This document shows positions 28,799 through 63,347 of a stretch of 64,000 bases of DNA, one piece after another. Position numbers and translations under genes: made by a program. This stretch comes from Bilabrum cf. latius. Its lineage: Eukaryota. Under the pieces are notes generated by a model. That model had not been told where the DNA came from. It did no database searches and worked only from the letters and a program-made list of their open reading frames with translations. The DNA is taken from assembly GCA_965178125.1 (NCBI GenBank), contig OZ237759.1, positions 682,001 through 746,000 on the forward strand. Direction: 5' to 3'. How positions within the stretch are numbered: the stretch's first letter is position 1; each line of letters opens with the position of its first letter.

Positions 28799-28830
<32 letters not shown>

Positions 28831-31800: not shown

Positions 31801-33662
31801 TGAGTGGGGCGGGCGGGCTCAGCACGGAACTTGCAGCGAAGTTTCCCCAGGCCACCGTCATCTCGGTCGAGCCGTCCAAGAAGCTCGCCACGGCGCACTT
31901 GGCCAGGGCACAGCGACGCAACGTGACGAACGCAGCGGTGTGCCAGAGGGACGTCGACTATAGGATGGTGCGTTCTTTGTACAAATCGCCCGAAATGCTG
32001 AGGTACATGACCCTGTCCGCTGACCTGCTGGAGCTGGCAGCCGACAGGGGCGTCGACGAGGCGGGCAAGCTCGTTGGATTCGGAATCGCAACCGCGATGA
32101 CGTCATTCCTCCGCGTGCCGCCCGCCTCGCTGCTGTCCCTGGCCGTAACCACCTTCCACCACACCTACCCGGACCCGAGGTGGCTGGCACCTCCGTCGTG
32201 GGCCGCAAACAGCGGGGAAGCAGCGGGCTCCACCGCAGGTGGCAGCGGAACCGGCGCCGCGCTTCGCGCCTCGTCCGGGCACCAGCTCCCCGGCGTGGGT
32301 GACTCGGCCGCATTCGCCACCCTTGGCGGCAGCGGCGGATCCCAGCCGCTGGCTCCCCTGCAGGGTCACAGGTTCGCACTTCGGTACCACCCCCGTCCCC
32401 TCTTCCGGCAGGCGGAAGCGAGGATCATCGCGGAGCTGGCCAGGGGACCCGACGAGGCCGAGGTGGCGGTCACGCCGATCCTTGCGGTGCCTCGACTGGC
32501 TAGCCAGCCGGACGCAGCTGCCCTGTTGAGCGAGAGCGGCGGCGCGATGGGAAGCGGCTTGGTGCGCGTGGACGTGGTGGGGCTGGTTCGGAACGTCAAC
32601 CACCACTTCGAATCGGAGAAGGACGGTCACGAGCGCAAGTACACGCTGCGGGTGGGCGCCAACGCAACGGCCGTGCTGGCCCTTTCGGCGCTCTCGGGGA
32701 ACAATCAGGGAACAAGCGGGGGATCGGACCAAAAAGAGGTCGCGGCGCTCCACGCGCTCGAGGCGGCGGGGGGACCTGAGGGGGCACGGAGGGACGCGGC
32801 TGCTGCCGTGGCGCTGCTGCGGCTGCAGCCGTCCGACGCTAGCCAGGGCACTCCACCGGTGGATTCCAACGCGCAGCTGGCCCGCATGTACGGCCACTTG
32901 TCGCCGGGCAACCACCCGAGCGGCGGCGGCATCGTGTCTGTCAGGCTGACTCGGGATAAGGACGACTCGAAGATCCCTTACGTCACTGTGCAGGGCGTGA
33001 CTCTCATAACCGTCCTACGGTTGGGCCTGCTTGCACCCCTGAAGCTGCGAGCGTACCACGCTTTCGTCGGGCTGCCTCTCTTCGAGGACATGGCGCCTTG
33101 GAACATCGTGTTCCTCGGGCCCAGGCTTGACTACATCGACTTTGACACCAAGGACCACACGTACGACGCGTTCGTTCCCAAGACGTACGAGACCCTCGAG
33201 GCCCTGTTCAACTACAAGAGAACGCTCTAGGATTTCTCAAAGTGTCCCGGGAAGTCTCCGCTAGGAGGACCCTACGGATTCCTCCCCCTCATCTCAGATT
33301 GCGTGGCGTCCGATTTCGCGGGGCCATGCAAGGACGCGGACAAACCGGTCCCGTGCGGCGATGGCACCTGCCACAGCGATTTCCTATCGTGTCTCAAGGC
33401 CACTTCCGCGCTTGAGAAGATCAAGGGGCGGGCCAAAGACGCACAGGCGCTGGATGCGGCCCGCGAGGAGGCTGGCCTGAGGGGTGCCAGGGAACAAGGG
33501 AGGGGGCAGGCATGGCAGAGGATGGCGGGGATTGACCCCGATGTGGGGGCGGGGGCGGGGGCAGGGGACAGGGGCTGGCGCGGCGTGCCCATGGGCGTGG
33601 CCGGGCAGCCGTGGATGAGGGCGGGGTAGTGGACGTTTGGCGAGGCTGGGGCGCTGGAATGA
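24492..33662 (+). CDS. Large (~3,000 aa) secretory-pathway protein with three methyltransferase-like repeats and a C-terminal kinase-like motif set; exons 24492-24571 and 24716-33662
   Basis: Signal-like MTTVQIHVAALVALSLLCFEVQVSGAS, then a GTGAG...GCAG intron at 24572-24715. Nine same-frame track ORFs are linked by 9 TAGs; TGA at 33660-33662. Motifs FLELMSGAGGLSTELAAKFPQATVISVEP and EDMAPWNIVF...YIDFD. Confidence 0.8.
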
Positions 33663-36368: not shown

Positions 36369-37856
36369 ATGATGTCAATCTTGCCCGTGTGTATTTGGGG
36401 CGTGTTTTTGCATTCAGCCTCTGCAAAGATGCTGCAAGGGACTGTGCGAGGCTGGAACAGCTGGGACGCGGTAGGTCTCAACGGCAACGAGTCCTTTGTG
36501 TACCAGGCCGCCGACTATCTGACCGAGTCTGGCCTCCAGTCCAAAGGATATACTTGGATCACTAACGATGCTGGATGGTACGGCGCCGGGGCTCCCATTG
36601 ATCCGCTGTCCGTATCTATCGACGAGTATGGTCGCCTTCGTCCTAGCAAGGAGCGCTTTCCTTCTCTAGGCGGCAGCTTCGCACCGCTATCTAGCAACCT
36701 TAAAAAGAAAGGCTTCAAGTTTGGGCACTGGCTCATTCGAGGCATTCCTGTGCGTGCCGTGGTGGATCGCACGCCGATCAAAGGCACCAACTACACCGCT
36801 GCAGACGTTGCGCGGTTCGACCGCAACTGCACGTGGTCCGGCCTGAACGTCGGCGTAAACGCTTCTCATCCCGCTGCATAGGCGTGGTACGATTCCGTGG
36901 TGGAGCTAGCCGCGGAGAGCGGCGTGGCGCTGCTCAAGTGGGACTGTCTCTTCGCCAAGGACCTCGTCGCAGACGAGCTGCAGCTCATCGCGCGCGCCGT
37001 CCGCCGCTCCGAAGCGAGCATAGTCCTGTCTCTGAGTCCGGGGCAGGAAGAAGTCCCTTCTCTCGGGAAGTGGGTCAACGACAACGAGCTGGCCACTTTC
37101 TACCGCGTGGATGGAGACTTCTGGGACGTGGGTCCGGGGATCAATCCCGGGTGGGGCCAGCTCTGGACGCACGTGCACACCGCCTGGGCCAACGCGAACG
37201 CGGGAGTGAGGAACAACGACCTCGACATGCTCCCGATCGGGGCCATTGGCTGCGGCAGCGCCGTGCCGCCGTGCCGTCAGTCCCGTTTCCCCCTCGAGCA
37301 GCAACGCACGATCATGGCCCTGTGGGGCATCACAGGCAGCCCCCTCATCTGGGGAGGGGTACCCGAGGCGGTTGCAACCTCAAACGAGACACTCGAGCTG
37401 CTGGGGAACGAGGAGCTGCTTAGGATGCACGAGGCCTCCGCTGGCGGCGAGGGGGGTCTCCTGGCCCTCGCCTTTCCGGAGCAAGTGCTCTAGGCTGGTG
37501 AGCAGGCGAGCCCTGTGATCGTCGGCAACGGGCACTACTCGCTAAAGGCAGTCAACGTTACGGTGACCGGATCGGATGGTGTGACGAGTGGCGATGAGGG
37601 CCGTCAGGACACGGCCGCGTTCGTGCTGTTCGCCAGATCCTCCCAGCCGGCGTGGGTGCTGGTGAGCAGCGGCCGCGCTGGTGCTGTCGAGTATGAAGCC
37701 AGCTGGTCGCAGCTTGGCATTGAGGTTGCAACCGGTGCGTGCGCTAAGGTGTCGAGCATCTGGAGCGGGCATGCATCCAAGCGGCAATGCAGTAAGCTGA
37801 GCGGGACCGTGGCGCCCTACGCGAGCGCAGCTCTGCGGCTGGACTTGAAGGCATGA
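36369..37856 (+). CDS. Secreted glycoside hydrolase family 27 (alpha-galactosidase-like), ~495 aa
   Basis: Signal peptide; RGWNSWD, ITNDAGWY, DEYGRLRPSKERFPS, KFGHWLIRGIP, HPAA(TAG)AWYDS, LLKWDC, SIVLSLSPG, YRVDGDFWD, NDLDMLPIG, SPLIWGG. TAG at 36879 and 37491; TGA at 37854-37856. Confidence 0.93.
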
Positions 37857-38748: not shown

Positions 38749-41700
38749 ATGGTACCCGAACTTGAGACCGGACAAGAGCCTGACCAGCTGGCGACTAGCG
38801 GCAGAACGCATCAAGCATATAGCAGGATACAGGCAGCTTTGGTGGCAATTAGTGCCGCATCACTTGCTTATATTACGGTAACAGCTGTTTCGTTAGTGAA
38901 TTCTTCGACTGAGACAGATGCACCTCGCACAGAGAGCCAGCGGCACCTCCGCGGCGACAGCCTCGTGCAAGAGCTCAATGGCCCACTGGCAGAGGGATTT
39001 GGAGTGGAAGCAGCTGTACTTGATATGCTATCCTATGAGAATATGTCGATAGCAGGGTTCGCAGCTCGACGCTTGGCTGATCACTCGATCGCCGCGTCTT
39101 GCTCTGTGCTCGGGCGCGACCTCGGAACGTCTTTCTGGAGCGACGCTTTCCACGTCATCGCTGTTGTCGTGATATTTTTATGTGTTGTTACCGGATTGAC
39201 GCCCCAAATCTCCTAGCTTGGTGCGCATCTCCCCGGCAGTGATGCAGAAGCAGGCAATGCATAGCGTCGCACCAATGCTGCTGCTGGGTTATTAATGCTT
39301 TTAACGTTTTGCGGTGCCTTGGCTATTGGAGCGCTGCAACTATGCGAGCATATTTTGCATCTTTTACGGTACCATGACGCATCGAAAATTGTCTACGGTC
39401 TGCAGCTTCCCATCGGGTGGGTGACATTTGCTGGCTTCGGCTCGGCGTTCGTCTCAATCGTGCTCCAAGCGGCCGATACAAAAGCCGCGCCAATCGTGGC
39501 ATACTTCACGTACGGTGTATCGTGTTGCCTCTCTGGGTCCGCGATCGTCATTGATTTGATGTCGTCAGCCGATGACGTCAATCGGGCCACGATGGTTGCT
39601 TGGTTTCACTTCGCTGCAGTGCTCGCCCTGACAATCGGAGTGCTCGGGTTTGACATGGGGCGCAACGGCTGCAACAGATTGTACACCTCGTCGCGGGAGT
39701 GGAGGCTATGCTGCGGCATGAAAGGGCAGGCACCCCCACCGGTACTCGCAAGCGGCCCTGATGCCGCGCAGGATGGCCAAGACAAAGCGCGTGTAGTTTT
39801 GTCATCCGTGCAACAGCAGGACCTGGCTCGGGACATGGGGGTGCTGCTGGCCATTTTGCTTATCGGGCTGACCGTCGCGCTCGGTAACGACGTCATACTC
39901 GCGCACAAGGGGGCCGAGCACCGTTTGCAACCGTCTGGCGAGCTGATCCAGATGGTGCTCATCCGGTGGGTGCCTGTCGTAGCGTGCTCCTTTCTGCCCA
40001 TCGAGTTCATTGCCTCGGACACTTTTGAAGATGGCACTGGCAACGAGGGGATGAGGGCTAGCGCGAACGTTCGTGAAGTCTCCGCGGATGGAGCCAAGGA
40101 CAGCGGCGTGGCCTCGGCTGCTGCCCCCTCAGAAGCGCCTGCAGCAGATGCAACTCCAGAATCGCGAGGCGAGCGCGAGGGGGCGCGCAACACAAAACCG
40201 TGCTTGGCGCATTGCTGCAGCTGCTTGTTGAGCACTACAGAGCCCGTGGGCCTGTCCACCATCGTGCGATGCATCGCCTCAGTCTCGCGGTGGTGCAACG
40301 GCGAGCCAGCACCGGCGTGGATCGCACCCGTCCAGCTGTCCATGCACGCCTGGGTCAAAGGATACATCGTGGTGATATTCGCCAGCCTTCTTGTTGCCAG
40401 TGCCAGCGACTGCTGCATCGGGCCCATCGGGCACCTCTCAGGGTGGGCGGTCCTGGCGCGGGCCCCTGCACTGCCTCTGCAGGTGTGGCTGCCCGTTCTG
40501 CTGGCACTGGTTCGGCTGCACGCGTCGAGAAGGGCGCTCCGTTTCGAGCTGGGCGCGGCGCATTTGCTGCCACTTGACGATGCTGCCGAACTGCATCGCA
40601 CGGTGGCTTGGATTGGTTTTGTGCTGTTCGCTCTGCACATTATCGGGCATGTGGGGAACCTGGCGGTGTGGGCCGACGGGCCGGATTCTATGCCTGACGT
40701 GGTTGCTCTAGTGGGGGGCACGTATCCCAAGTTCTTCGACCTGATCGCAGGGCAGTCTGTCTGGGCCATCCTCTGGAACAATTTCGCGGTTGCAACCGGG
40801 ATCGTGCTGACAATTTCCTTCATGACGATGCTGATCCTCTCAGAGGAGAAGATCACCAGGCAGAGGTGCCCGACCTGGTGCTCGTGCTCGAGAAAGAAGG
40901 CATGCTGCGTGCATATGGACATGGTCAAGGACGAACGAACGGGAGCGACAAGCCCCGAGCTGACATACTGCCGGGTCATTGATTGCCTCGCCTGCGCGAG
41001 AATCACGCCTAGTACCAAACAGACGGTCGTCATGTGCTGCTGCGAGCAGGGGCCGGAGTTTGCAAGCCGCACGCAGCTGACCAAGGAGGCGGACCAGGCG
41101 CTGAATCGACTCGTGATTGCCATGCACCATGCCGAGAGCGACAGCGAGGCCGAAGCCGAAGGTGAAACAGTCGCTACACCAAGTGTCCGCGATGCAGGCC
41201 GCCCTGTCGGCCTTGGGAGCAGTGGTGTCAAATGCGATGGGGAAGGCGTGCCGGTCGTCGCACCCAACCCTTGCGACAAAGCGCGCAAGGTGACAAAACC
41301 AACGTCGTAGCGAACATCGGGAGACTAGCCGAGCGACGCAGCTGCAGGTACCCGATAGGATCGTCTAGTGCGCAGCATATCGGTCGGGACGCTCAATTAC
41401 ATGCAGTCGAAACTGACAGCCAACCAGGTCAGAGCCGCGGCAGGAATCGTAGATAAATACATGGCTGCGTCGAAGACCAAGACCACGACGAGCTACGGCT
41501 GCTTCCGGTTGGTGAAGCGGGCATGTAGCGTGGTGGGACTCGCAGCTTGGCTCATGCATGGGGCTAGCGGAGTCCTTGGAGACCCACTCGTGGGCAGCCT
41601 TACAGCCGGCGGGGTGATGGTTTTGACGTACATTGCCGCCGAGCTCCTCGATTTCTGGCTGGGTCAGGGAGGGTGCCTGTCCGCTTCACGGGTGCAGGTG

Positions 41701-44700
41701 ATTGCCCCGTCGGCGTACTCGGTTAGCGGCAGGATTCTAGAGGAAGCCGACGGCGTGCTGCCTGACGATGCTGCGACCGTTGCATTCCACGAGGCTTCAG
41801 AGCTGCTGCAGCGCAGCGCACATAGATCTAGCAGCGGATGCAGGCCTCCCGCTGAGTCCGGCCGCGATTCACCCCTCGATACCGAGAAACGTCGCGACTC
41901 AAGAGCTGACGGCAAGGACGGAAACGACAGTGACAGCGTTCTATCACAGTCTAGCGGCATGGAGTCGTCGAGCAGGGACTTGAGAGGGGCTCTGGAGCGC
42001 TGTCGCCGCCGCCTGCAGGCGAGCGTGCAGAGGTCCAGGGATGTCATCCTTGAGGAGATCACGTTTGCAGGCGATGATATCAAGCGCGGAAGAGCCGTTC
42101 CCAAGCGGTGGATGACCGTTTCGATCGACACTGCTGGGCCGCAGTGGGAGATGCAGCAGCTGGACGTGCTGCGTGCCATGGAGCCCACCGATGTAGTGGC
42201 GCATATTGGTGAGGGTATTCGTTTGCTGGACATGGCAGCACGAGACGAAGAGCGTGCTGCCGATGTGGATTTTGACGCGTTGCTGCGGTACATGAAGGCA
42301 GGGCACGGGCGGCTCTTGGCCATGCCTGGGATTGCGCTGACATCGCCGTTCACCAGGACCGGCATGTTGAAGCTGTGCCGGTCCGTGTACACTGAGCTGT
42401 TCTATGCCCGCGCGCGGGCGCTTGATTTACCATGCGGCTGGTGCCCCACCTACTAGCGGACGTGGTTCTTCACAGAAACTGCCGTTGAGCTCGGCCTGCA
42501 GATCCGTGCTCGGGCTGCCTGCGTGCACGCGGGCGAGTATGTCTACCTGGGCCTGTACGAAGCAAAGTGGTGGTCATCAGGGAACAGGGACCTCTAGGGC
42601 GGGGGCCACCAGCAGGGGACGGTCTCATGGCTCGGACAGCTTGCGGCCAAATCGGCGCTGCCTTTTGCCACCAGGCCGTTCACCGTCGCCGCGCAGCTGA
42701 TGGACACAGACGGCACGCCGAGCGGACTAGAGATGCACATCGACTGCGCAGGCAACGGAGAAGTGGAGCTGGGCGAGAGTGTGACGAGGAGCATGTACGA
42801 GATGATCATGCAGTCCATGCTGAGAAGCAGGATCAACAAGATCCGATGGGCTACCGGAGCTGGATCCAGGGCTGGTCACAGCGGCATGCAGTGGGAAAAG
42901 GAGGGCGCCCAGCTCCCCACGCTGCTGCTTCACGGCCCGTGCCCTGCCCCCGCGGTGAGGCCAGCTTCCGGCAGGGTCAACCACGTGCTCGCGTTCGCTT
43001 CGGGATTCGGAATCACTAATTCCATGGCCCTGATGACTCATTACCTATGGAAATTTGGCAGAGGGCTGCATCGTGGGGCGGGGAATGCAATAGTGAGGGG
43101 TGCATCCGGGACTCTGCCGAACACCGGCGAGGTCTCGTCATCGAATGCTCTGGTGCTTGAGGGTGCCCTGGGTCAGCTTCGCAAGGGTGGGGCCACAAGC
43201 GCAGAGCAGTTTGATGTGCTGACTACCCACGGGCACAGCATGGTGCTTGGGTGGGTCACGAACGACCTGGGTCACGCCAAGCGAGTCATAGCGGAGCTGG
43301 GCACAGCGATGATTGTAGCCACAGCGGGTGTTCCCAGGCGCGTCGCGCAGCTGGTTCTCAATCGTGTGTGGTCGAGACTTCTTGGGCGACCTATTCCCGG
43401 CATGGACTCCCTGTTCCCCACAGCTGCCAGCCTCCACACCATCGGGCTTGGCCAGCTGCACGAACACGAAGTGGAAGTGGGCGGATCAGGGGGATCTGGC
43501 GTTGGAGGTGCTGCTAATCAAGGTGGATTTAATGACCTGTGGGCGCAGGACAAGAGCGCGAGCGCGCCCAATCTAGGCAGCGCAGCAGCCGCGAAGAGCA
43601 TGCGGCTGCTGCTGGGATCCGCTCAAGCTCGGCACATCGAGTGCATCCCGAATGACGCAGCCACGTCTGCCATGGAAAAGCAGGACTCATTGCGAGTGTC
43701 AGCTCTCAACCATGCCGAGGCCTGCTTGGAGAAGCAGAGGAAGAGGATCCTACTTGAGTTGGAGATGGGCGATTGGGAGGTGCCCGAAAGGCTGAGGACA
43801 CGCACAGAGGCGATCATCGAAAAGCAGAAGGAAGCGAGCAAATTGGCCAAAAGCAGGTGGTCGAAAGCGGCTGGTACGGCTGCAGTACCAAGAAGCAGAT
43901 CGGCTTCCGATGCCGACGTTGCTTCAAACGGCATACAGAGGGCAAGGGCAGCCACTGGAGAAGGTGCGATAGCTTCATGGGCAGCGGTGGCTGCCCGAGG
44001 TGTCGGAATCGCGGCTGGTGTGCGAGGCATGCGGCAGGCCAAGTCACGGGCTGGTGGGCTGCTTGCGCGTCTCCGAAGCGCTGGTTTGACCAATACCCCC
44101 GGGACTTCCACCAGCACAGGCACGGATACGCAGGGGGTAGCAGCACCGCCAATCGCTCCTACATCGAGCAAGAGAGAGTCGTTTGAGGCGGATGAGGGGC
44201 AAGGCTCGCCTGCTGGGCACAAGGAGGGCTCATCTACTGAGCACAAGGAGGGCTTGCACCCGAGCATGGAGGAGCAGGACCAGCAGGACAAAATCACATA
44301 GTCAAAGGAGATTACAGTAACATTTGACGAAGATGACATCACTACTGATGCCATCAAGCACATCAGTATTGGCCACGGAGCTGCAGGAACAGAAGGCCCA
44401 TCGTCAGTTTCAAACTCGCGTCCCTCGCCCGAGGGACCAGCCAGCAGACCCCTAAATGCGCTACCCTCCAATGAGCATGGTAACGATGCCGATCACGTGG
44501 CAGCTGAGGCACCCAGTAACGATGCCGATCATGTGGCAGCTGAGGCTCCCATGTCACGCCCAATGAATGAAGCAGGCCTCGGCAGCGGTGACGGCAAGCC
44601 CCGGGTGCAATCATCCGTCGGTGCATTTGCTAGCGTGTTCCTGTCTGTTGATGGGGGCAGAGGCTCCAAACCAGGGCGCAGCATGCTTCAGAGCCTTCAC

Positions 44701-45105
44701 ACGTGGCTCCCTCGGCTGGGTCACGGCAAGCTTCGCGGCTTCGACGCAAAGGTCTACCTGTCCGCCAGTCCGTTCGGGAGGGAAAGGCACGTGGGCAAAC
44801 TGGCGAGCATGAGGAAGGAGACGGATCTGTTGTTCCGGTTTTCGGCTCTTTTGGGAGTGAAGGTCGTCCTGTACGACCGCAAGGACAGAGGTGTGCCGCC
44901 TCCGACCAAGGAGCGGGTCATGACCCTGGCCAATCGCATGAATATCGCTGGGGACAGGGAGCGCGCAGCCTTCGGGAACCGCATTCGCACGGGGGAGTGC
45001 GTATACTGCGGCGCTTCGATGCCGATCGTGAAGCAGCTGCGAGCGGCCGCCAGCCAGGTGGGCAAGGGGAACGTGGTGGAGGTGTCGCACGAGGTATTTG
45101 CATGA
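38749..45105 (+). CDS. Expanded NADPH oxidase / ferric reductase-like flavocytochrome, ~2,118 aa
   Basis: Five same-frame ORFs joined across TAGs. Motifs occur in canonical order: LLPLDDAAELHRTVAW...LHIIGHVGN, AWLMHG, AGEYVYL, RPFTVA, LHGPCPAPA, VLAFASGFGIT, LGWV, VYCGAS...EVSHEVFA-TGA. Confidence 0.8.
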
Positions 45106-45555
45106 CTACTGGAGCTCTCGTGTCACCGTGTTGGGCTCTTTGCCAACGATCCACGGACTAGGCCTGGCACCATGCGCACTGCAAGTCTTGAATTTCGGGT
45201 GACACACTTATGTCTTTGCACAAGCGCGCGTATCCGTACAATATTCCAATCAATATCAGACCCCACAAGTCGAGCAATGCTGTCAACAGAGATCACAAAC
45301 TGTACATTGCACTTCTAGTCGTATCCCCGAGTCCATATCTCGGAAACACTCCCGGCACTGACCGCGAGCTGGCTAGGTTATTAGGGTTCTCCTACGGACC
45401 ATTGTCGAAAATGCAGCACTGTTTCCATGCAAGCCATTTACTTCGCGAACCAGCGATCGAAGATTGGTGGTGGTCGAAAATCACTGCACTGTAATGCAAG
45501 TGGTGCCGAAATAATGTTCCGCGGGTCGAATAGAACGATCTCGATACACCTTAAT

Positions 45556-46905
45556 ATGGCGGATAGCGCCTCTGCTGAATGCGGTGCATGCGTTATAGTA
45601 TCAACTGCCTGCCTTTTCGGGTGGTATTTCGTCTCAGCAGTACTTCTGCTGCCGTATAGCCTTGATGGTGTTGATATTGCAGACAGTCTCGATTTGTCCT
45701 GTGTTGTGGGAGGCATATACTCGCTATAGAACGAATAGAACAATGATTTGTATCCTGCACGATTGAGAACGCGAGATGACGCAGGGCTTCTATACGCATA
45801 GCAGCTTGTCGGGCCGTTTGCGGCGGATGGCGCAGCACAGGAGTATATCCAATCGCAGAGCACCACCCTTGGGAACTGGACCTTACAAGTGTCCAATAAT
45901 TAGCTGCAGATCGGCGATCTATTCCGGCAGGTCCCGGTGTGGGAGTACCCTATCGGAATGTAGAACGGACGTCGCATCGCAGTGTCTGGGCCGCTCCCAG
46001 ACGGTGCAATGGGACAAGGCCCCAACGCCAGCACAGTGCATCTAGAACAGATAGGAACAGACTTTTGTGACACGGAGGCTGCTAGAGGTAACGTCTGGTA
46101 CGAAGTGCGAGACTGGTTTCCGCAAGCGGCTCTGCACCTGGCCGCTGCGGGGTGCAGCTTGACAATCCCAGTGATTCTGGCTTTGATTGCGATATTTTCT
46201 TGCAACCAGTGCTTTACTGTCTCCGACAAGATTATGGGTACGTTGCTGTTGCTTTGCTTCGTTCTGATCGCCGGCCCATTCGCGGCTTCTCTTGCACTCG
46301 GGGCTCCGGCATTCGCCGACTTCACCAGGGGCGGGCGCGAGTCCACGGACTGGCAGATGCACGTCCTGAAGGAGAGCCCGCAGACCGGACTCGAGTACTC
46401 GCTGGCCAATAACTGCGCCTGGTCGTTCATCGTGTTCAGCGCAGTTTTCGGAATCATTTACTGCGTCGGGTGTCCCTTCGCCCTGCCGTACGTGGTTCTC
46501 TCCAGCGTGGAGATTATTCGAGAGAGGAGGAGAGCGAGGAGAATCAGGGCGCCGGCTGAGAATGGAGCCGATGGGATGGAACGGTAGCAAGGCGGCGAGC
46601 AGCAGGGGCAGCAGCGTGTAGGGGAGTTGCCGCCAGCAGCTGTGGCGCAAGGCCACTCGAATGGCGGTGGCAATGCGACGGGTGCTGCTGCTGGGAATCG
46701 CGCCATTGATTCGGGAGCTAGTGCTGTCCACACAGCCCCAGCACGACCAGGCTTGGAGGCCATGAGAGTGTTCGTTGCTTCGCGTAACACTGGGGATGCG
46801 CAGCGTGACCGTGAAGGCGGTGTGGATGGTTTGGTCGGGGCGCAGGGGGTGGCTTCTGCGGTAGCACCGGGGGCCGGCGCGGAGCACAAAGCAGTCCCTA
46901 TCTAA
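45556..46905 (+). CDS. Multi-pass membrane protein of unknown function, paralog A (~449 aa)
   Basis: Frame is open apart from 6 TAGs and ends at TAA 46903-46905. Shares ARLRTR.D.GLLYA, STTL.NWT, PVW.YP and CDT..ARGNVW.EVR.WFP with 52099-53184. Confidence 0.82.
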
Positions 46906-46994
46906 ATCCACTCACAGAAGCAAACGCTTTTGTGGAAGAGGAAGGGAAGGCGAATCGAGCGTGTCGATGCCAGCAGGATAGAGCAAGGGTTGCA

Positions 46995-47387
46995 GTGGCA
47001 ACTTGGCCATTTCGAATCCTGAATGAGCGTGTCGACCGATGTCAGCAGGGAGGAGTGGGTGGACTGCCGTGGTGACTTGACCATTTCGAATCCTGAATCG
47101 AGCGTGTCGACCGATGTCAGCAGGGAGGAGTGGGTGGACTGCCGTGGTGACTTGACCATTTCGAATCCTGAATCGAGCGTGTCGACCGATGTCAGCAGGG
47201 AGGAGTGGGTGGGCTGCCGTGGTGACTTGACCATTTCGAATCCTGAATCGAGCGTGTCGACCGATGTCAGCAGGGAGGAGTGGGTGGACTGCCGTGGTGA
47301 CTTGACCATTTCGAATCCTGAATCGAGCGTGTCGACCGATGTCAGCAGGGAGGAGTGGGTGGGCTGCCGTGGCAACTTGGCCATTTC
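46995..47387. repeat. 75-bp minisatellite, ~5 near-identical copies, with a degenerate copy from ~46952
   Basis: Unit CCATTTCGAATCCTGAATCGAGCGTGTCGACCGATGTCAGCAGGGAGGAGTGGGTGG[A/G]CTGCCGTGGTGACTTGA, head to tail with no spacers. Confidence 0.93.
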
Positions 47388-48105: not shown

Positions 48106-48141
48106 GCGGCACTTGTTTTTGGTGCGGCACTTGTTTTTGGT
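48106..48141 (+). repeat. Perfect 18-bp direct repeat (GCGGCACTTGTTTTTGGT)x2 just upstream of ATG 48148
   Basis: Seen directly; ends 6 bp before the start codon. Confidence 0.8.
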
Positions 48142-48147
48142 TTATCG

Positions 48148-51100
48148 ATGTCATCATGGTGCCCACCTGGATACTTCCGTGACAGCCATGGACGGCTGTG
48201 CAAGCTGCCTCCTCCTGGCGATGCTGCTGCAGCGAAACACGCAGCTGAGCGAACTGTAGCACAATCAGCGACTGATCGAGGACCAAAATCTAAAAAGAAA
48301 CAGCCAAAATACTCTCGAAGGGGTAGCTTGTCCCCTTACACTCGAAAGGGTGCCTCGAAGCGTGTCTCGAGAAAGCGGGCCAAGACCTCGTCGCCGATCG
48401 TCGGTGGCTTCAAGGACTACACCAGATTCATGTGGCCCCACCAACTCCGAAAACTTGGCATGTCTTGCGGGATGGCAGTGCCCCGATCGGGTACGAGGCA
48501 CCTGCCTCTGCACGGTGCCGTTTGCCTGGCGGCACACAAGCGCGTGTGGCTTACAAGCGACAACAGACGTGGCGTGCAGGGAACCGCCGGCCAGAGCCGT
48601 CGATCAATAGCCACGTATCATGAACGATGTATGGATACGATGATCGAATCGGCGTGGCTAGACAGTGGCATTCGTCAGTGCGACTCCCTTGAGTCCGTGG
48701 GTGGCCGCAACTCCGGCACTGATGATGCCTCCGGCCAGCGAATCTCAACTCAAGAGAACCCCACGAGAATTGCAGAAGGATCCATCTGTACCGCCGTGGC
48801 GCTCTGGCTTCCGCCAAGGTCGGATCGCAGCAGCAGCAGCAGCAGCAGCAGCGGCGGCCTGCAGCAGCAGCCACATCGGGCGCTGGATCTCCCATAGTCC
48901 CATCGAGGCACGAGTTCGGAAGCCCGAGCCGGCCCACACGCAGTCACGCGCGCTTACAGGCGCCGCAGAGCCCAAGCCGATTCCCTGAGGCGGAGCAGAG
49001 CTCCCATCAGGGCGCGCATTGCGCGCTGTACCCGTCTGCAGGGGCCATCAGGTGCCTATAGCACAACCACATGGCAGTTCACAGGCGCTGAAGTCCTCGA
49101 TAGGAACTTCTTAATGAACAGTGTGGATGGTAGGACTGGATATCGGTCTTAGTAGCATGTATCCGAAGCCATTCCGCAGCCAGCGTCCGGACCCGGACGG
49201 CAGCGAGCAGTGCGTGGCGTCGGACTGTTCCTAGCACCGCCGTCCTCCTTGCGCAGATCTTCCTCCTCAAGGCACGGCAGGCGGATCTGGCCCGAGTCCA
49301 GCTCTTGGCCGAGGGCAGTTGCTTGCCAGGCCAGCTGGGTGACAGAGATGGGTTTCAGCGATTTCAGCTACCCAAATGAACGTGTGATGCAGATGCCGTT
49401 GGCTGGAGTGTGTAGATCTAGTGACGGTGCCGTGGACGCAGCAATTTCGGGTGCCAGTGCTGGTCAGAGTCGTGCTGCAGCCTTTGTAGCTAGAATTAGC
49501 AGCGTCGTTGGCGCAAACACGGACAGGCAGACCGGCCAGCTGTCCGGATCAATGATCGGCCAATGGATCTGTCTGCGCAACGCGGTGGCGACGTTCCAGG
49601 TCAGCGAACAAATTTGTTCACGTGAATTAGTGCTTGAATTGCTGTCCAGGCCCATCGTGTCGAACACCGCTGGAAGTGTCGCGTCCCCACTCACTGCGCA
49701 GAACCTAGATTTAGCCTCCTCCCAGGCGGGCAGGCAGCGCGAGAGAGAAACGAGTCAAGGCCACGGAACTGGCCCAAGCTCCGGCTCCGGCCCCGGCCCC
49801 AGCTCCAGCTCCATACACGGCTAGGCCGCGAGCACTGCACCTGGCGACGCGCAGCAAGCAGCGAGCAGCGGGGCACAGAGTGAAACAGGGGGAATCGAGG
49901 ACGATGCGAGCAGCGAGGCACAGAGTGAAACAGGGGGAATTGAGGTCGATGCAAGCAGCGAGGCACAGAGTGAAACAGGGGGAATCGAGGACGATGCGAG
50001 CAGCGAGGCACAGAGTGAAACAGGGGGAATCGAGGTCGATGCAAGCAGCGAGGCACAGAGTGAAACAGGGGGAATTGAGGTCGATGCAAGCAGCGAGGCA
50101 CAGAGTGAAACAGGGGGAATCGAGGACGATGCGAGCAGCGAGGCACAGAGTGAAACAGGGGGAATCGAGGACGATGCGAGCAGCGCCCGTGACGCGGACT
50201 ACTCTTCCGACGAGGAAAGCCCGCTATAGAATGGCTGGTGGCAGCCGTTGGCCAGCCCCATGGGAGTGATGCCGCCGATCTGCTGGACACGCCAGGCGCC
50301 GAAATACCAGCTCGAGCCAGCTGTTGCTGAGGAGCCCGCGATGTTCAAGAAATGCACGGTGCAAACTGTCTGGCCGCTATCCCCATTCGCGATGTTGTAT
50401 TGCACGGTAGAAGGCGCGTTCGTGCACTCGATGTGGCAAGGGAATCCAACCACGACAACAGTTGCGATCGAGCGAGAGCGCGTGAGCGTCGGCGACGACG
50501 AGCTGCGGTGCGCGGCGCCGCTGGTTCCGCTGGAGGACTACCGCAGCGTCGCTTGCGTGTAGGAGAGCGACATCCTGCTCTGGCGCCAGGAGCGCTTCCA
50601 CGAGGCACTCCGGACCCCCGATGTTGCGGTAGGTCTCAGGACGGGTCGGGTGATGATCCTGCCCGGAGCAGACAGTGGGACTTACAACACAATGTCTGTG
50701 AGTAGTTCCCAACCAAAGCCTGGACCGGCTGGCAAGTCAAAGTCGGGCGCAGCGCAAGCAGGCGCCGCCAGTGGGGCTCCCAGGACAGGGGAGGGCGAGG
50801 GAAAGACGAGCGAGAGCGAGAGTGCTCTGGATGTCAAGTCTGCAGTGCCATCAATAGTGTGGCAGAGCGATGCGCCGATCGCGATGGTACAGTCCGTCGC
50901 GTGTTCCATCCATCCAGCCTGCCACACGAGCGACCAAAGTGCTGTGCAGGCCGAATACCGCGGCAGGCATCGTGCCGTGCTCGTGGTCGCCGATCGCGGC
51001 AAGCGGGCTGGGCTGCTTCCCATCCGCCAGTGCAAGCGCGGGCAGTGGATGCGGGACGACGGCACTGCAGCCTCCCAACTGTCCGTTCAGTTTTAGGGCT

Positions 51101-51882
51101 ACTCCCATCGCACCCGGCCTGACTATGCCGTGGCCGCTGTTCTCAAAGGGAGCAGGTTCTTCTTGGGGCCGTACGAGCACGGGCTGGCAGTCCGTCAGAT
51201 ACTTGCAGAGGCAGATGAGAAGGAGAAGGAGTGTGTGCGGGCCGAGCACGGTGACCGTGACGGGGCCAGGGACGGAAAGGGGCAGCGCGGAGTGCGGAAA
51301 GGCAAGAGAAAGAGATCGAAGTCGAGCAGGGAGCGAGGTGCCGGTAGGGCGCCAGCTGCTGCTGGGCGTGCTGCCGCTGGCCACCACGCCCTGCAGCAGG
51401 GGCTCACAGCCGTGGCGCAAGAGGAAAGAAAGAAGCAGCCGGGCGTGGATGAGGCCCTTCCCGGACTGCTGGGCATCTGGCCACTGCGCGTGCTCGGCGG
51501 CAGATGTGAGGGTGGTGATGTAGGCAGACCCACGACCTGGGTCCCTCCCGTATGCGTGGTGACTCCTTTCCTGCAGGCAGTGCCGCGGTCCTTACACGCG
51601 GGTGCGCTGCATGCAGCTGCAGGGCATCCCTATGCTGACGCAATGCCCCGAGGTCGAGGTGGCCGCAACAGCCGGCGTGAAGTGCCGAGGCGGCGGGTGG
51701 TGACGAGCTTGGATTAGGTCGATTTGGCTCATCAGGTAGCGAAACACGTGCCGTTACATGCCGAGAGCATCAAAGAGGCGTTCGTGGGGATCGATGACCG
51801 CCGCTTGTTGCCTGAAGAGGAGGTGTCTGAAGAGCAGGTGACCGGGGCCTGCCTGCTGCCTGCACCGTCTGGCGTTGACTGA
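48148..51882 (+). CDS. Hypothetical protein (~1,244 aa), basic N-terminus and acidic internal repeat
   Basis: ORFs 48148-48897, 49210-49824, 50248-50562, 50650-51096 and 51130-51717 share a frame. The gaps contain only TAG, including a tandem TAG TAG near 49150. TGA at 51880-51882. Confidence 0.72.
49861..50184 (+). repeat. 45-bp tandem repeat x7, coding for (ASSEAQSETGGIE[DV]D)7
   Basis: Unit GC[GA]AGCAGCGAGGCACAGAGTGAAACAGGGGGAAT[CT]GAGG[AT]CGAT, read in the frame of the host CDS. Confidence 0.93.
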
Positions 51883-52098: not shown

Positions 52099-53184
52099 AT
52101 GGACAAAAAAGATGTTCCTGCATGTGTCACAGCAAGCGCAGGCATGTGTGTTTTCGTAGTCTATTTGGGCTTGTGCGCTGCCCTGCTACCCGCGAGCTCA
52201 ACGGGAGAGCAGCTTTCAGCAACCTTGGAACCCTCTTGCGTGGTAGGATTGAGGCACAAAGTTTCGAACCAAGACGGCAGTCTACAGTTGTCAGCACGCC
52301 TGCGCACCCGGGAGGATGGCGGGCTCCTGTATGCGGAATGGATCGCTGGTGATGGCGTCTCCGCTGCACGCGATCTTATCGATTCATAGAGCACGACCTT
52401 ACGCAATTGGACAAGGCTAGTTTCAAATGACCAACTAGATGTTGATGACTCCATTGCGTTCTTTCCAGTGTGGATGTACCCAGTGGATATGAAAGGAGGT
52501 GCAGCCGCAGGTCAAGGAAGCATTGCGGTCGCAGCTACTCTGCCGAACGAGGCGTACAGCATTCGTACGGGTGCTAGATTTGCAAACCAAGGCGCAGAGT
52601 ACTGCGATACTGCGGAAGCTCGAGGCAATGTCTGGTTTGAGGTGCGAGAATGGTTCCCGCTCGCTGGCGCGCGTCTAGGAAGGGCTGGGCTTGTCGTCAC
52701 CACAAGCGTAATTATTTCGACCATTCTCATCATTTCCGCGGGGCTATCATTCGACAAAGAAACCAGACTGCGGCTGCTCGTGACCGCCGGGCCCATTTGG
52801 TGGGTGGCAATGCTGGCTTTCGTGCTGGCCTTTCTTGTCCTCGGCGGTCTCGGTGCTTACGGACTTCGGGATGTCCTAAGCGACTACGAATCTGGACTGG
52901 CTGTTATGATTCGCGAGGCGCCTCAGTCACGAGGTGCTTTCATCCTCACGATGCTGTGCCTCGCCGGGTACATTTGCTTCGCGATCATCGTCACCGTGGG
53001 GCACCTGTTTATCGGCGCGCTTCTCGCCTCCGAGGTGTCGGACAGGATGAAGGAGTCCAAGGCTGCAGGTGAACAGAGGAGGCAAGCAGGAGGGGGGAAT
53101 GGGGGCCATGAAGGGGACGCTGACACTGCTCAGCTGAGGGGCGCCCAGGGTGTGACGACCTGGAATCCCACGCAGAGACTGTGA
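52099..53184 (+). CDS. Multi-pass membrane protein of unknown function, paralog B (~361 aa)
   Basis: ORFs 52099-52389 and 52468-53184 join across TAG 52387. Collinear similarity with 45556-46905. TGA stop. Confidence 0.85.
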
Positions 53185-56696: not shown

Positions 56697-59600
56697 TCAC
56701 GGCAGCACCTGAAGGGCGATATCCTGCTCCACCTCGAACGCCACGTCGCCCATCCCTAGCGTGGTGTTGAAGCCGCTGGGGAAGGGTGGCTGCGGCCCGT
56801 CAAGGTAAATGGGCGCCCCCCTCTGCCACGGGAGGATCTGCAGAAGAACATTCGTCGGCGAACCTTCACGAAGCGCTCCCATGTGGGCAAACCGGTTGAA
56901 TCCGATCGTCAGGGGTATCCCAGGGGCGTACTGCTGGTCGTACATGAACACGCCATTCATCGGCGCCCCGCTGCCAGGGCCGCTCCCGAAACCCAAGTAT
57001 TCCGGATCAAGAGAAGAAGGGTTCGTGTAGTAGGCGCGCACCACGTCGCCCCACCAGGGCAGCACCATGCGCACGTCTGTGCGGCAGCTACCCCCAGCGG
57101 GTCTCGATCCCGGGTCTGGGCCGTAGGAGCATGGGGTGCTGCCCGCTGGGGCCGCGTGCGGGTAGAAATCGATCTCGAACTCGGCTGAGACGTTGAAATC
57201 CGCATCACGAGGTTCCGCAGCGGCGCCTTTCGGGCCGATGGGGATGTGACGAGCGGGTCCTGCCCGACGGACAAGCCCGCTGTTCACGGTCACGTTGCGG
57301 ATGGCGGGTGCGGGAGATGACCCAATGAACGCAGTGAATGCGCCACGCTTCTCCTGCTCCATGTTCCCTGTGCCGGGCGGACAGCCGGCACCCTTAGGGT
57401 AATGACTGCCCTGCAATACACCCGGATTCGATGCACCGCCATGGGATGCACCAGGCGCGTCGGGCATGCACAGCCCAGTGGGGGCCGGCAGCATCAGGAT
57501 CTCTACGTCTGGCGCAGCGCCTCCTGCCTCGCCCGATGATGGCGACCCGGCGGATGGAAAACCGGAAGTGGCGTTGACCTGGATCCTGACCTGGTCACTG
57601 TCTCCCGCGGTCGCAATCACCGCACCTCGTGTGACGATTGCGGTGTCCACGCCGGCCACCCTCTCCCTGTAGGTGGCCAAACCCGTGGGCTCGTCCAGCA
57701 CGACAATGGCCACTTCGGCTCCGTCCGATGCGGCTTTGACCACGATGGCCTCCTCCAGCCCCGGGAGGAGGCCAGGGAACACGTAGTTCCCGCCCCGCCT
57801 CACAGGGGTCACGGTGGAAGACACCACGGAGCTGATGCCGTCCTGCTCCAGGCCGACCTCGATACCGAGCCCGCTGCCATCGCCGCCGTTCATATTCGCG
57901 CTCCCGTTGCTGTAGATCCCTTCGATAGCGGTCAGGAACACGGTCACCTTGTTCCCTGGGGAACACACAGCGAAGAGGGGCTGGGCCGTGGCGTGGCTCA
58001 CCACCACCCCCGCACCCAGTGGGCTACCTCCCGGGGAACAACTGGCCGTGGCACCAGCGCTGATCGAGTCCGTGTGTGTAGTTGCATCTCTCGCATGTCG
58101 GTCGCCCATCGTGGCCGATGGCGCCCTGCGCTTGGGCTGCTCCCACGCCGTGCGAATCGGGCTTGGATCGCTCTGCAGGTCGGCCACGTCCCAGCCCATT
58201 ATAAACTGGCCGTACGCCCCGGGAGCGATTGAGAGGGGCGCCGAGCCGTTGGGCGGGAACATGCGGGTCTCGTTCCCGGGAAGGTGGATCGTAAGCCGCA
58301 CGCCGTCGTGATGGGCGAAGGACTGTCCCCGCCCGTAGCTGTTGATACCAAGCAGCACCGGCTGCTGGCTGGCGGCGCCGCGCACGTAGGTTCCGCTAGC
58401 AGGGGCGGGGTTGGCACGCACCGCCCAGCGCAGCGTGGTGGTATCAGTTGTACCCGTCGGGCGGATCGTCGGCAGGTAGGTGGTCAAAGAGGCCAGCGCG
58501 GGCCCTGCCGAGTGCAGCAGCAGGTGCAGCCTCCTCATAGAGTGGTAGTGTTCCCTCACCTGATGGAAGGATCCCAGAGGGGCCTAGTAATCGTAGTCCA
58601 GCACGGGCATGTCGTTCGAGCCACCCGAGTACTGGGCCTCTTGCATGTAAGACAGCTTAGCGATCGGATTAACGCTGCCCTGGTAGATGTAGTATCCCCC
58701 CGAGGCAGTTCCGCTGAGCGACTAAACGGTTGCAACCGGCCCGATATCGGATGGGGGAACAACAACCCGTCTATGGTAGGCGGTGCTCATGCCGTCGCCC
58801 ACCTCTATCTCCAGCTGGGGGTAGGTGCCGTTTGGGTGGAACCCCGTGGTGGAGGGAAGGTACCCCCCTGATGGGGGGTCGGGTTGTGTGTTCCTCGGCC
58901 AGAATTGGGACACGTACACCCCCACGTTGGGGACGAGTTCCCCGTATGGGACACCCTGCATGGTGGGCCACTCCGTCTTTAGGAAGTAAGGGGCGTCAAT
59001 GCCCGCTTGTTGCAGGGCGATCTTCTTGAGGGCCAGGAGGTACTGAGGGTCGCAGCAGTACTCATTATCCACCTGCGAGGGAGGAAAGTGGAGGCAGGTA
59101 CGATGGAGAAGGAATGAAACATTGAGACGCACAGGATTCAATGCAATCGGTCAGGTTTGCATAGGTCACACTCGGTTGCCTCACCTGGAACGAGAACACG
59201 CCCCCACCGTCCTTCCACAGGTGACCCTGAATCTGCTCCCCCTCTTGCTGGTACAGAAGTGTGGCGAGTGCGAGGAACTTGGGGTCTGTGGACCTGAGCT
59301 TGACCTTGCCCTCGCTGGCCAGCGCCTGCAGCCAGTCGGGGAACCCGCCCCCCCTGGCCTCTCCGTGGGACCACGGGCCCCCGCGCATGAGAACTCCGAG
59401 TCCTAGCTCATCTGTTCGGTTCAAAAAACCGTCCAGGGACCGTCGCCCGTCCCAGCGCCACTTGTTCTGCTCCTCTTCGGAATGCAGCCAGAACTGGTAT
59501 GTCTGGATCGAGTCCAGGCCGCCGGCGCGCATGCGCAGCAAAGCTGTGCGCCATTCGTTGGCCGGAAGCCTCGCAAAATGGAGGGATCCATGGACTGGGA

Positions 59601-60075: not shown

Positions 60076-60236
60076 CGCAGCGCGTGACGATCCTCACTCT
60101 TCATCGACCACAGCGATGTACTACCATTTTAGAAGATCAAGCAGCCTAAATGGAGCATAACAGAGAATACACAATACAACTTAGAATTGCAATCGCCCGA
60201 TTGACAGTGCATATTCTAGCATTCTTTTTTTTTTTG

Positions 60237-63200
60237 ATGAGCTGGTTCAGGCCAAGTGGCACGCGCACAACGCAGCCAGTTCAAAGGCAAACAGGCGGTG
60301 AATCAATCGGCCAAGCGAGCGAGCAAAGCAGCGACGTTGCTTCGATTGAAGCCGTGGCAAACACAGAGTAGTACGTAAAAGCAATACATGCCATTAAGGC
60401 ATTATCTGGGCCTGCTCTAGCCACCCTTAGTGCCGATCCGCTCGGTAAGAATGCATAGCAGCTGGAAGAGCACCTGCAGTTCGTCTCCACAGCTTTGTAC
60501 CGGCTGCCCCGGTCAGTATGGAACAGCTCCCCCATGCTGTTAAATTTGTTTGATACTGAACAAAGCAGCAGTATTGTGAAGGAGGTCTGTCAGGTCCTGA
60601 ACAGCCGCGGACTTCCGGCAACGCTGCTGGCAGAGGCAGCCAAGCTTGCGCACTCGCTGTCTCGTCCGAATTCGTCCCAGCGCCACTTTGCGGGGAATGA
60701 AATTGGGCTCAGTGCAGCGATGCTATTGCGCGACAATGCTGATAGCAAAGCGCTAGTCGTGCCATTGACGGCTGTGCTGTTCAACGTTTTGAGCGAGCCT
60801 TCAATCGGGAAGGAGTTTGTGGAAGCCGGGGGCATGGAGAGTGCGGGTCTCGCGTGGAGGAAGCACATGGACAGCAACTTTGTGTGCAGCAACATGCTGG
60901 GGCTGGTGACGAGCCTGATGTCGTAGTTTTTGGCAGGCGAGCACGGGGATGGTCTTGTGCACGCGGACTTCGCCGAGCAGCTAGTGTGGCTGTGCTCCGT
61001 GTGCGTGCGGCAGGGCGGCGTGAATCGTTAGCACCGCGAGTCGTTTGATATCGCCAGAAAGTGCATGCGTGTTGCGACTATCGCTTCATCTGTGTCTAGC
61101 CGAAGCGGGGACAGCCGGTAGTTGTGGCTTGATGCGGTGCTTGGCGTGGATGGCGCGCATGGCATGAGTCAGTCGTGGAGCCCCTCCGATCTGGCGTTAG
61201 GGAACAAACGCAAAGGAAACGGCGCTGCGGGACCGGGGAAATAGTCTGTGATCCGTCCGTGCTGTCTGCCAGCTCTGCTGGTGAGTGAGCTGGCGCCGAG
61301 GGTGGAGCGACTGGCAACGGGTGGATCTGTGACCGGGCCCGGCGGGCTGCTGTCGGGGGAACACACTGGGCTGCGGGACGATGCACAGCGGATGCTGCAC
61401 TGTGTGTGCCAGCGGGCAGGGGCATGGGGCCAATAGCTGCAGGGGCGAATGGCCTCGGGTTTCTCTGGTCTCGGGGGGGCGATTCAGGGGGCGGTGCGCC
61501 TGAGCTCGGTGGCTCGCCGTGTGGGAGTGGGCTGTCGGGAGGGGAGTAAGGGCGTGGGGGCTGTGGTGCTGGATCTGGTGAGTCGGGTGAGCGTATCTGA
61601 CATGCAGGAGACGATGGGCGGCTAGGTGGAGGGGGGTGGGGCTGCGTCTGCCACCCTATCGCGCGAGTCGGGATCGGGGGCAACGGCGGTGCCGATGTCG
61701 CAACGCCGTGTAGATACCAATTGTAAGAAGGATGTGGGTCGTCGGGAGGTGCTTGCGGCAGCAATGCAGTGCGCATGGGAGAAGAAGGGAGGCCCGAGCG
61801 TGGGAGGCACCGGGGGCGGGGAGGGTGTATCCTGGGACAGCCAGACCGAGGAGGCTGCGGGTGAGCTAGTGGAGCTGGCTGGCAGCTTGGTGGGGGTGGA
61901 TGGCGTGCTCGCCGTGGTGCGATCATAGGGCATGGGGCAGCGGTCGCTGGTGCTGCGGGCGGCGGAGTATGTGCTGGCCGTGACGACGTCTGGTCGCGCT
62001 GGCGGATCGCTTGCTGGCGTTGTGGATTTCGCAGAGGCGGCGCTGGAGGCATTCGGCACATCGGACGGTCCCATCGCAGAGACGGTGCTGGAGAGTCTGT
62101 ACTTCGCGTGCTTCCGTCAGGGGGTGCGGGAGCGACTGGTGGGGGGCAAGGGGTACGAGCTGTGTCGCAGCGCTGGTTCGCGTTGGGACGGAGGTGGAGC
62201 TCATAGTCGTGTCCATGATTTCACTCGCGGCGTGCAGGTGCTGTGCGAAAAAGAGCTTCGGAATGCGGCTAGGCTGCGGGCCCGGCAGGAGCAGCAGAGG
62301 CAGCAGCAGCAGCAGCAGGAGGCTGAGGCTCGAGCGGCATAGCAGGCCGCTGCAAGCGCTGATGGTGATCGGGATGGGGATCGGGATCGGGATGGGGATG
62401 GGGATGGGGACAGGGGACGCGAGGCTGGTGTTGCTAGTCCAGATGTCACGGGCGGCTTGCTAGATGGCATGCAGCAGATGGAGTAGATTCAGCAGCAGCT
62501 AGGACAGCTCGAGGGTCGCGTAAGATAGGTGGTGGGCGATCATGAGCTTGATTCTGCTGCCCATGAAGCCGTGGCTGGGAACCGGAGCAGCTTGGGCGAG
62601 CTAAGCGCTAGGGTAGCGCGGATGCAGGCCATGTTCGAGGCCGCGAGCCGCATCAGCGGCGGAGATGAGCAGCTGCGAAGTCGCGTACAGGTGGCTCACG
62701 GCTCTTCCCCTGCCAGTGGAAGCGAAGAGCCGGCATCGGGGGGCGTGGGGCGCTCTTCTAGCGGCGGAGCATGTGCAACCCTGGGAGAGTTGATGGCGGC
62801 GGCGATGGATGCTACGGGCAATGCAGATGGAGCTGCTCCCCTTGAGCATGAGGAGTATGGCAGGTATGAATTGTAGTCGGACGAGGAAGAGGAAGAGGAA
62901 GAGGAAGAAGAAGAGGAAGAAGAAGAGGAAGAGGAAGAGTAGGGTGGCGCAAGGGGGAGGGATTCCCCGCAGCACGGTATAGTCGCCCACCCTGCAGCTG
63001 CGTCTGCAGATTTGGACAGCTAGCAAGTCTTCGCTGGCATGCAAGCAATGGAAGAGTTCGCTGACTCGATATCAGCAAGTGCTGATTCCATGCCGAGCTG
63101 GGGCGCGCTGAGCGCGGGGGTGCAGGGAAGGCTGGAAGGGGCAGACCATGAGGGCGTCTGGGGGGACCTGCAGGAGGGGCACGCGGAGGAGGTGCAGCCC

Positions 63201-63347
63201 GAGGAGTAGGCAGGAGGAGGGCTAGTCGGTGGGTGGTAGCCAGGCAGTGGCAGTGGCAGGGGCAGTGGCAGTGGCAGTGGCAGGGGCAGTGGTCGTGGTC
63301 GTGGGCGCGGGGGTGATCGAAGGAGGCGGAGAAGCCGGGGTCGATGA
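60237..63347 (+). CDS. Alpha-helical (armadillo-like) protein, ~1,036 aa, with poly-Q, poly-E and a C-terminal (GS/GR)n tail
   Basis: Same-frame ORFs are linked only by TAGs up to TGA 63345-63347. Segments such as LTAVLFNVLSEPSIGKEFVEAGGMES and VRERLVGGKGYELC look ARM-like; the fold call is tentative. Confidence 0.7.
62883..62939 (+). repeat. (GAR)n purine tract coding poly-Glu
   Basis: gaggaagaggaagaggaagaggaagaagaagag... in frame within 60237-63347. Confidence 0.85.

Follow-up and report, generated by a model that had tools for sequence, protein, structure and literature searches.

UAG as a probable glutamine codon, set apart from UAA, in 64 kb of GC-rich eukaryotic DNA

Reading frames and stop codons of the window

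We considered a stretch of 64,000 nucleotides of Bilabrum cf. latius (assembly GCA_965178125.1, contig OZ237759.1, positions 682,001 to 746,000 of the forward strand), called the window throughout, in which TAG occurs many times inside genes and TAA closes a single one, the membrane-protein gene 45556-46905. All counts given below refer to this one 64-kb window, the guanine-plus-cytosine (GC) content of which is 58-68% per 4-kb step and about 60% overall. With the standard stop codons, the longest open reading frame (ORF) has 1,019-1,023 codons. Once TAG is counted as a sense codon, about 16 long ORFs appear on both strands, the longest ORF grows from 1,023 to 4,898 codons and the ORFs of at least 300 codons sum to 28,738 codons instead of 9,795; if TAA is freed instead of TAG, this sum becomes 10,678 and the longest ORF stays at 1,023 codons. 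The longest gene (8088..22775, plus strand) then has 4,895 codons, among which are 44 in-frame TAG but neither TAA nor TGA, and it ends with TGA. A protein-kinase domain was recognised within its 4,895-residue protein using Pfam, and an ARL2-binding BART domain, a GH27 glycosidase and a GH35 beta-galactosidase were also recognised among the proteins of the window.

The GH35 gene (56697-60075, minus strand) contains an intron of 112 nt (59073..59184, minus strand) with GT..AG borders and the exon junction F-Q / V-D-N-E-Y. We read the window as cellular eukaryotic DNA, gene-dense and intron-poor, because this intron has GT..AG borders and is skipped by contigs of the public sequencing runs X6 and X7, and because the Pfam GH35 profile runs across the junction, exon 1 matching its positions 8-146 and exon 2 its positions 148-316. 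A cellular origin also agrees with the malate dehydrogenase gene, with the spliceosomal type of the intron and with the great length of the low-complexity proteins. The true end of the gene is a TGA at 56697; the apparent TAA end of the ORF 59065-60075 (59065..59067, minus strand) is false, being out of frame in exon 2, where the frame reads GAT AAT GAG.

Stop codons were counted in an ORF-based set of 18,473 codons and in a refined set of 14 gene models (17,961 codons), in which the GH35 gene is spliced, the GH27 gene and the TAA-ended gene begin at their likely ATG, and two doubtful ORFs (33846-35486 on the minus strand and 47023-47817) are left out. The ORF-based counts, for the coding frame followed by the two other frames, are 127/137/127 for TAG, 0/55/60 for TAA and 0/308/349 for TGA. 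TAG is therefore not avoided in frame, and the TAA trinucleotide is not simply missing from the DNA of the window, since it is found off frame. The refined models contain 116 TAG, 551 CAG and 181 CAA in frame but no TAA and no TGA; TAG is present in 13 of the 14 models and makes up 13.7% of the presumed glutamine codons. Codons ending in A are not rare (CAA/CAG 0.33, GAA/GAG 0.44, AAA/AAG 0.43), and the CAA:CAG ratio of 0.33 predicts about 38 in-frame TAA, with a Poisson probability of about 3e-17 for finding none. The initial annotation had held that TAA is never internal, that CAA and TAG are both common and that UAG and UAA are decoupled; these statements are borne out by the absence of in-frame TAA from the 17,961 codons, by frequencies of 10.0 CAA and 6.8 TAG per 1000 codons, and by the window's own counts, in which UAG behaves as a sense codon and UAA is kept out of reading frames.

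The in-frame TAA count is not circular, because ORFs bounded by TGA only carry TAA only before their first ATG or at their ends. These ORFs hold nine TAA in total: seven are found in the 726 codons that precede the first ATG, and the remaining two are the end at 46903 and the false end at 59065. Coding potential was measured by a codon-usage score trained on the window's other genes, and the four scored pre-ATG stretches, which contain five of the seven TAA, score close to zero (-0.053 to 0.013 per codon). When only TGA bounds the ORF of the longest gene, it counts 4,901 codons instead of 4,896, including 44 TAG but no internal TAA.

Pseudogenes, sequencing error and introns were considered as sources of the in-frame TAG and rejected, given the 44 TAG of a 4,895-codon ORF free of TAA and TGA and given identical contigs in four runs.

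Decoding of TAG and the ends of genes

TAG most likely encodes glutamine (Q), as judged from alignments. The TAG at 36879..36881 (plus strand) of the GH27 gene (36369-37856) stands where both of the solved bacterial relatives in the alignment have Q, within "egaQayyds" in 4nx0/4nxk and "egaQsyyns" in 3cc1. For exon 2 of the GH35 gene, a HMMER search yielded 755 relatives at E <=0.001, the best 150 of which were aligned locally (203 rows); at the TAG 58584..58586 (minus strand), in the motif Y-D-Y-x-A-P-L, 99 of the 149 non-gap rows have Q. A further comparison is offered by a paralogue of the TAA-ended gene (52099..53184, plus strand; 36% identity), which ends with TGA and has one in-frame TAG (52387-52389). 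This TAG lies opposite a CAG at 45856 of the TAA-ended gene, and reciprocally the TAG at 45901..45903 (plus strand) of the TAA-ended gene lies opposite a CAA (Gln) of the paralogue at 52432-52434. Glutamine is thus supported at two of three conserved-domain sites and at two of six paralogue-aligned sites, two of the aligned TAG being set differently in a BLASTP alignment of the paralogues. The sample is small, at five informative matches to Q against a single conserved site in disagreement. In both the GH27 and the GH35 genes, recognisable protein continues past TAG.

Other comparisons were silent on the amino acid. No copy of an internal repeat aligned across any of the 127 TAG for a comparison of TAG with CAG, a search of solved structures with GH35 exon 2 gave no match, and the solved-structure alignment of the ARL2BP-like protein ended up outside the TAG sites of that gene.

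The density of TAG varies from 0 per 327 codons in the malate dehydrogenase gene (23076..24059, minus strand, TGA end) to 17 per 1,065 codons in the gene 60150..63347 (plus strand, TGA end), the highest in the window. TAG is densest in long low-complexity proteins and least frequent in conserved enzymes; none was found in malate dehydrogenase, nor in the conserved parts of the kinase core and of dimethylarginine dimethylaminohydrolase (DDAH) that align with solved structures. This pattern would fit a recent origin of TAG from CAG at tolerant positions.

We also compared the window with contigs from four of ten public sequencing runs, none of them listed as RNA and the type of which (RNA or DNA) is a guess. 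A contig of 4,852 bases from run X6, which is without the GH35 intron, shows 0 differences over 56514-61477 and spans 10 in-frame TAG, seven of them among the 17 of the gene 60150-63347. In run X7, an intron-less contig and other exact contigs cover further TAG and also the TAA at 46903. The X6 and X7 contigs are read as RNA-derived because of the intron-less joint and of their uneven depth, that of X1 being flat; the 10 in-frame TAG, unchanged in intron-less and probably RNA contigs, therefore argue against editing. Among 40 of the 133 variants, none touches a TAG or the TAA.

As regards gene ends, 15 of the 16 ORFs close with TGA and one with TAA, although two of these ORFs (33846-35486 on the minus strand and 47023-47817) are uncertain genes. 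The initial annotation had tallied 14 TGA and one TAA among 15 ends. TGA predominance needs no special cause, because TGA and TAA occur in the ratio 808:176 over the whole window, from which the probability of at most one TAA in 16 ends is 0.19.

The single TAA end (46903..46905, plus strand) is covered with 0 differences by contigs of runs X1, X2 and X7. The ORF that it closes opens at 45172 (45172-46905), but alignment with the paralogue indicates 45556 as the likely true start, which gives a coding sequence (45556..46902, plus strand) of 449 codons with 6 in-frame TAG and a coding score of 0.163 per codon. Read-through would add 38 codons before a TGA at 47020-47022, as had been annotated initially, and in this stretch (46906..47022, plus strand) the coding signal is low: the 38 codons that precede the TAA score 0.222 per codon, and the 38 read-through codons score -0.039. 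Reference chunks of the same size score 0.209 +/- 0.134 in frame (3.7% of 433 at or below -0.05) and -0.169 +/- 0.147 off frame. The drop gives modest support to termination at TAA 46903, with a likelihood ratio that we estimate at roughly three.

Homology cannot fix the C-terminus of the TAA-ended gene, because its tail does not align with the paralogue and because P0001, the single relative found for this paralogue family, belongs to the other paralogue: it is 85% identical to the 52099..53184 copy and ends at the same C-terminal residues. A scan of prokaryote genome contigs recovered no relative of the family.

Just 3' of the TAA-ended gene starts a 75-bp tandem repeat (47001-47387, plus strand; 5.2 copies, 97% matches), and the read-through codons run into its first, diverged unit. 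Contigs of three runs stop at 47054 within this repeat and are uninformative on the 3' end of the gene. Directly after the TGA at 47020, and in the same frame as the upstream gene, lies the ATG-started ORF 47023-47817 (plus strand; 264 codons, score 0.172, TGA end), which contains the repeat and is either a gene or a repeat-bearing 3' region.

The genetic code of the window and its known relatives

We regard it as quite probable that the window is nuclear DNA of a GC-rich, gene-dense and intron-poor eukaryote in which UAG has been wholly taken over for glutamine and neither UAA nor UGA is translated. By the rules of codon-anticodon pairing, the anticodon CUA pairs with UAG and not with UAA, and UUA would read both. 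The abundance of in-frame TAG together with the lack of TAA thus points to a tRNA-Gln with a CUA anticodon and no UUA partner, and to an eRF1 blind to UAG. In the mechanism that we propose, UAG would be read by this tRNA, which would be unable to pair with UAA, and eRF1 would have lost the recognition of UAG, keeping that of UGA and, probably, of UAA; UGA would be the usual terminator simply from the GC richness of the genome and from TAG being no longer available. No tRNA gene was detected in the window by ARAGORN or, at the gathering score, with Rfam, and Pfam revealed no eRF1 gene among its ORFs.

Several observations weigh against this reading. The whole case comes from 64 kb of DNA, and the tRNA and eRF1 steps are deduced, because the window carries neither gene. 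At the second GH35 site (58722..58724, minus strand), one of the three conserved-domain sites, TAG faces mostly K (89 of 145 rows), with Q second (12) followed by R (9), and in the paralogue alignment four of six TAG are opposite S, D, E and K. The argument against editing hangs on reading the intron-less contigs as RNA, and run X6 is annotated "RNA? (probably DNA)". As a working stop, TAA depends on one gene, since the apparent end at 59065 is out of frame behind an intron; the initial annotation had already said that TAA as a stop depends on one gene end, which holds for one of 16 ends here, the second candidate being false. The contrast in coding score at that end is worth a likelihood ratio of about 3 only, and the last 100 residues of its product are a low-complexity tail to which the paralogue does not align.

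The alternative that survives best, and that we nevertheless find rather unlikely, is that UGA is the sole working terminator and UAG encodes glutamine, with UAA unassigned or poorly terminated and avoided inside genes as well as at their ends. The window would then represent a stage between the standard code and a code in which UAG and UAA (together UAR) both encode glutamine, the TAA end at 46903 being misannotated, tolerated or inefficient. The published UAG-only cases, as described in the available text of the papers, keep UAA as a terminator (PMC5304391; PMC11687900). Reading frames free of TAA are expected of an unassigned codon as much as of a stop, and TAA closes only one of 16 ORFs, at an end that homology cannot check and that is followed, after 38 codons and an in-frame TGA, by the same-frame, ATG-started ORF 47023-47817 with its coding-like score of 0.172; however, a single TAA among 16 ends agrees with the background ratio of TAA to TGA (P=0.19), so that no avoidance is seen at the ends, and the coding signal falls right after TAA 46903.

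That UAG could be dual, sense within genes and terminator at some ends as in Condylostoma or Blastocrithidia, appears improbable to us. When ORFs are delimited with TAG as a sense codon, an end at TAG cannot appear, and TAG is sometimes close to TGA, as in the gene 24675-33662, which has one 10 codons before its end, but TAG is as common in frame (127) as off frame (137 and 127), the GH27 and GH35 proteins are recognisable beyond TAG, and no gene of the window needs a TAG end. Hardly credible is the proposal that UAA, too, encodes glutamine or another amino acid (as in NCBI table 6 or in ambiguous codes), being too rare for 64 kb or context-dependent, for although UAA and UAG have changed meaning jointly in most variant nuclear codes, as far as the available text of the papers goes (PMC5304391; PMC11687900), and A-ending codons are a minority in the window, some 38 in-frame TAA are predicted and none is seen against 55-60 per frame off frame, the seven TAA of the TGA-bounded ORFs all preceding the first ATG and the scored stretches (5 TAA) having near-zero coding score.

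The favoured reading, with UAG as glutamine and UAA and UGA outside the reading frames, was compared with known codes. In the code of table 6, UAR encodes glutamine and UGA is the terminator, as in many ciliates, hexamitin diplomonads, some ulvophytes and Amoeboaphelidium; the window is like these codes in UAG = Gln and in the UGA terminator, and unlike them in that they translate UAA. All three stops are translated in ambiguous codes such as those of Blastocrithidia and Condylostoma. In Amoeboaphelidium TAG and TAA are both described as Gln (PMC6299283), and in Amoebophrya sp. ex Karlodinium veneficum all three stops are described as translated (PMC12005148), compared with 0 in-frame TAA or TGA in the window. 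Table 6 was rejected on 0 in-frame TAA versus about 38 expected, and the ambiguous three-stop codes on 0 TGA and 0 TAA in 17,961 codons: the window fails both tests because no TAA or TGA is in frame.

The window shares three features with an Iotanema-type code (the NCBI table 15 pattern): many in-frame UAG, UAG at several positions where homologues have Gln, and reading frames free of UAA and UGA; two others, that UAA terminates and that UAG never does, are less certain. The phenomenon is therefore an already described kind of code, and the decoupling of UAG from UAA is not new; the novelty implied in the initial annotation was overstated, nuclear codes with UAG reassigned and UAA as a stop having been in print since 2017, according to the parts of the literature available to us (PMC5304391; PMC11687900). 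The first decoupled nuclear codes, reported in 2017, were those of Iotanema, with UAG = Gln, and of the rhizarian exLh, with UAG = Leu (PMC5304391), and the later cases that the published text names are Scotinosphaera (Ser), Protocruzia and three phyllopharyngean lineages (Leu once, Gln twice) (PMC11687900). A mechanism based on a CUA tRNA and an altered eRF1 was already predicted for Iotanema and exLh (PMC5304391), and a GTS-to-GGS change is described in the eRF1 of Iotanema (PMC9161772).

Iotanema spirale (Fornicata) resembles the window in its decoding, with UAG alone translated as Gln and, in the available account, UAA and UGA never in frame (PMC5304391). It differs in its stops, with 104 UAA versus 15 UGA in 119 complete transcript ends (PMC5304391), where the window has 1 TAA versus 15 TGA at about 60% GC. 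Likewise exLh prefers UAA, unlike the window, at 56 UAA to 15 UGA (PMC5304391); both exLh (UAG = Leu) and Scotinosphaera (UAG = Ser) are reported to have retained UAA as a stop and assign UAG to an amino acid other than the Gln favoured here (PMC11687900). Among ciliates, Hartmannula sinica, Trochilia petrani and Protocruzia tuzeti are described as using UAG alone, and widely, for Gln while keeping UAA (PMC11687900; PMC10089648). In the published phyllopharyngean data, UAA closes 86.9-98.3% of genes and UGA is used least of the stops, at a GC content of 27-54% (PMC11687900). By contrast, nearly all ends of the window are TGA, for about 16 genes on one 64-kb stretch of about 60% GC. We found no GC-rich, UGA-terminating eukaryote with UAG = Gln in a full-text literature of incomplete coverage, so that such a case may already be published.

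Nuclear codes with separate meanings for UAG and UAA have been described in only a handful of lineages, as the available text has it (PMC11687900), and the window differs from exLh, Iotanema and the phyllopharyngean ciliates, in which UAA is given as the dominant stop (PMC5304391; PMC11687900). A case at about 60% GC in which UGA closes almost every gene would demonstrate that the capture of UAG does not require AT pressure, and it would offer a natural system in which eRF1 tells UAG from UAA while UAA is almost unused, with a bearing on how UAR reassignment starts. Of particular interest is whether termination at UAA persists in this organism. It is conceivable, though doubtful, that the window comes from an undescribed lineage in which UAG was captured for Gln in a GC-rich genome and UAA is nearly or wholly disused, termination being essentially by UGA alone; if true, this lineage would be an extant intermediate linking the standard code with the UGA-only codes in which UAR = Gln. 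For practical purposes, annotation of this genome with the standard code will break most long genes, as 13 of 14 models contain TAG.

Other features of the window

The remaining long genes all end with TGA. On the plus strand are the gene 24675..33662 (2,995 codons, 9 in-frame TAG), a membrane-protein gene at 38749..45105 (2,118 codons, 8 TAG) and the gene 48148..51882 (1,244 codons, 8 TAG), and on the minus strand the gene 2017..5943 (1,308 codons, 8 TAG). The N-terminal half of DDAH is encoded at 63493-63999 (plus strand; E 1e-27 to human DDAH1), where it is cut by the end of the window, and its ORF overlaps the 3' tail of the gene 60150-63347 in another frame.

Three carbohydrate-active and probably secreted proteins are encoded in the window: the GH27 protein (36369-37856, plus strand), an 819-residue protein with no family assigned (53919-56378, minus strand) and the GH35 protein (56697-60075, minus strand). 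The real start of the GH27 gene is likely the one at 36369, with a signal-peptide-like stretch. The closest solved structures of the GH27 protein are bacterial (Geobacillus Abp, E 2e-49), a likeness that may reflect gene transfer from bacteria. Two WD-repeat-like ORFs of the minus strand (35423-36745 and 33846-35486) share 64 bases, read in different frames, and probably belong to a single gene whose intron went unrecognised; at its upstream end this pair overlaps the 5' extension of the GH27 ORF.

Malate dehydrogenase has relatives at 98% and 79% (P0004) identity, the named proteins listed being at most 54-55% identical (Balamuthia, Naegleria). A metagenome scan with this protein kept 80 loci, all 47-54% identical, and did not recover the 79% relative P0004, and a protein-atlas search with the same TAG-free protein gave family-level matches only. 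A word-based protein search with shorter lengths of the 17-TAG protein gave no match, its low-complexity words having probably swamped the search.

Second copies with 85-98% protein identity are present in the public runs (for window positions 44000-63999; proteins P0001 and P0003), and many run contigs are 85-95% alike to the window, those of run X1 falling into likeness classes of 39/17/54/53. The second copies point to diverged alleles or homeologues, or else to a close relative sequenced with the same material. Finally, a short element at 47579-47640 has many genomic copies, its bins reaching a depth of 235-270 versus about 16-26 nearby (runs X1 and X6), and at this place many contigs of all four runs break, with semi-conserved flanks.

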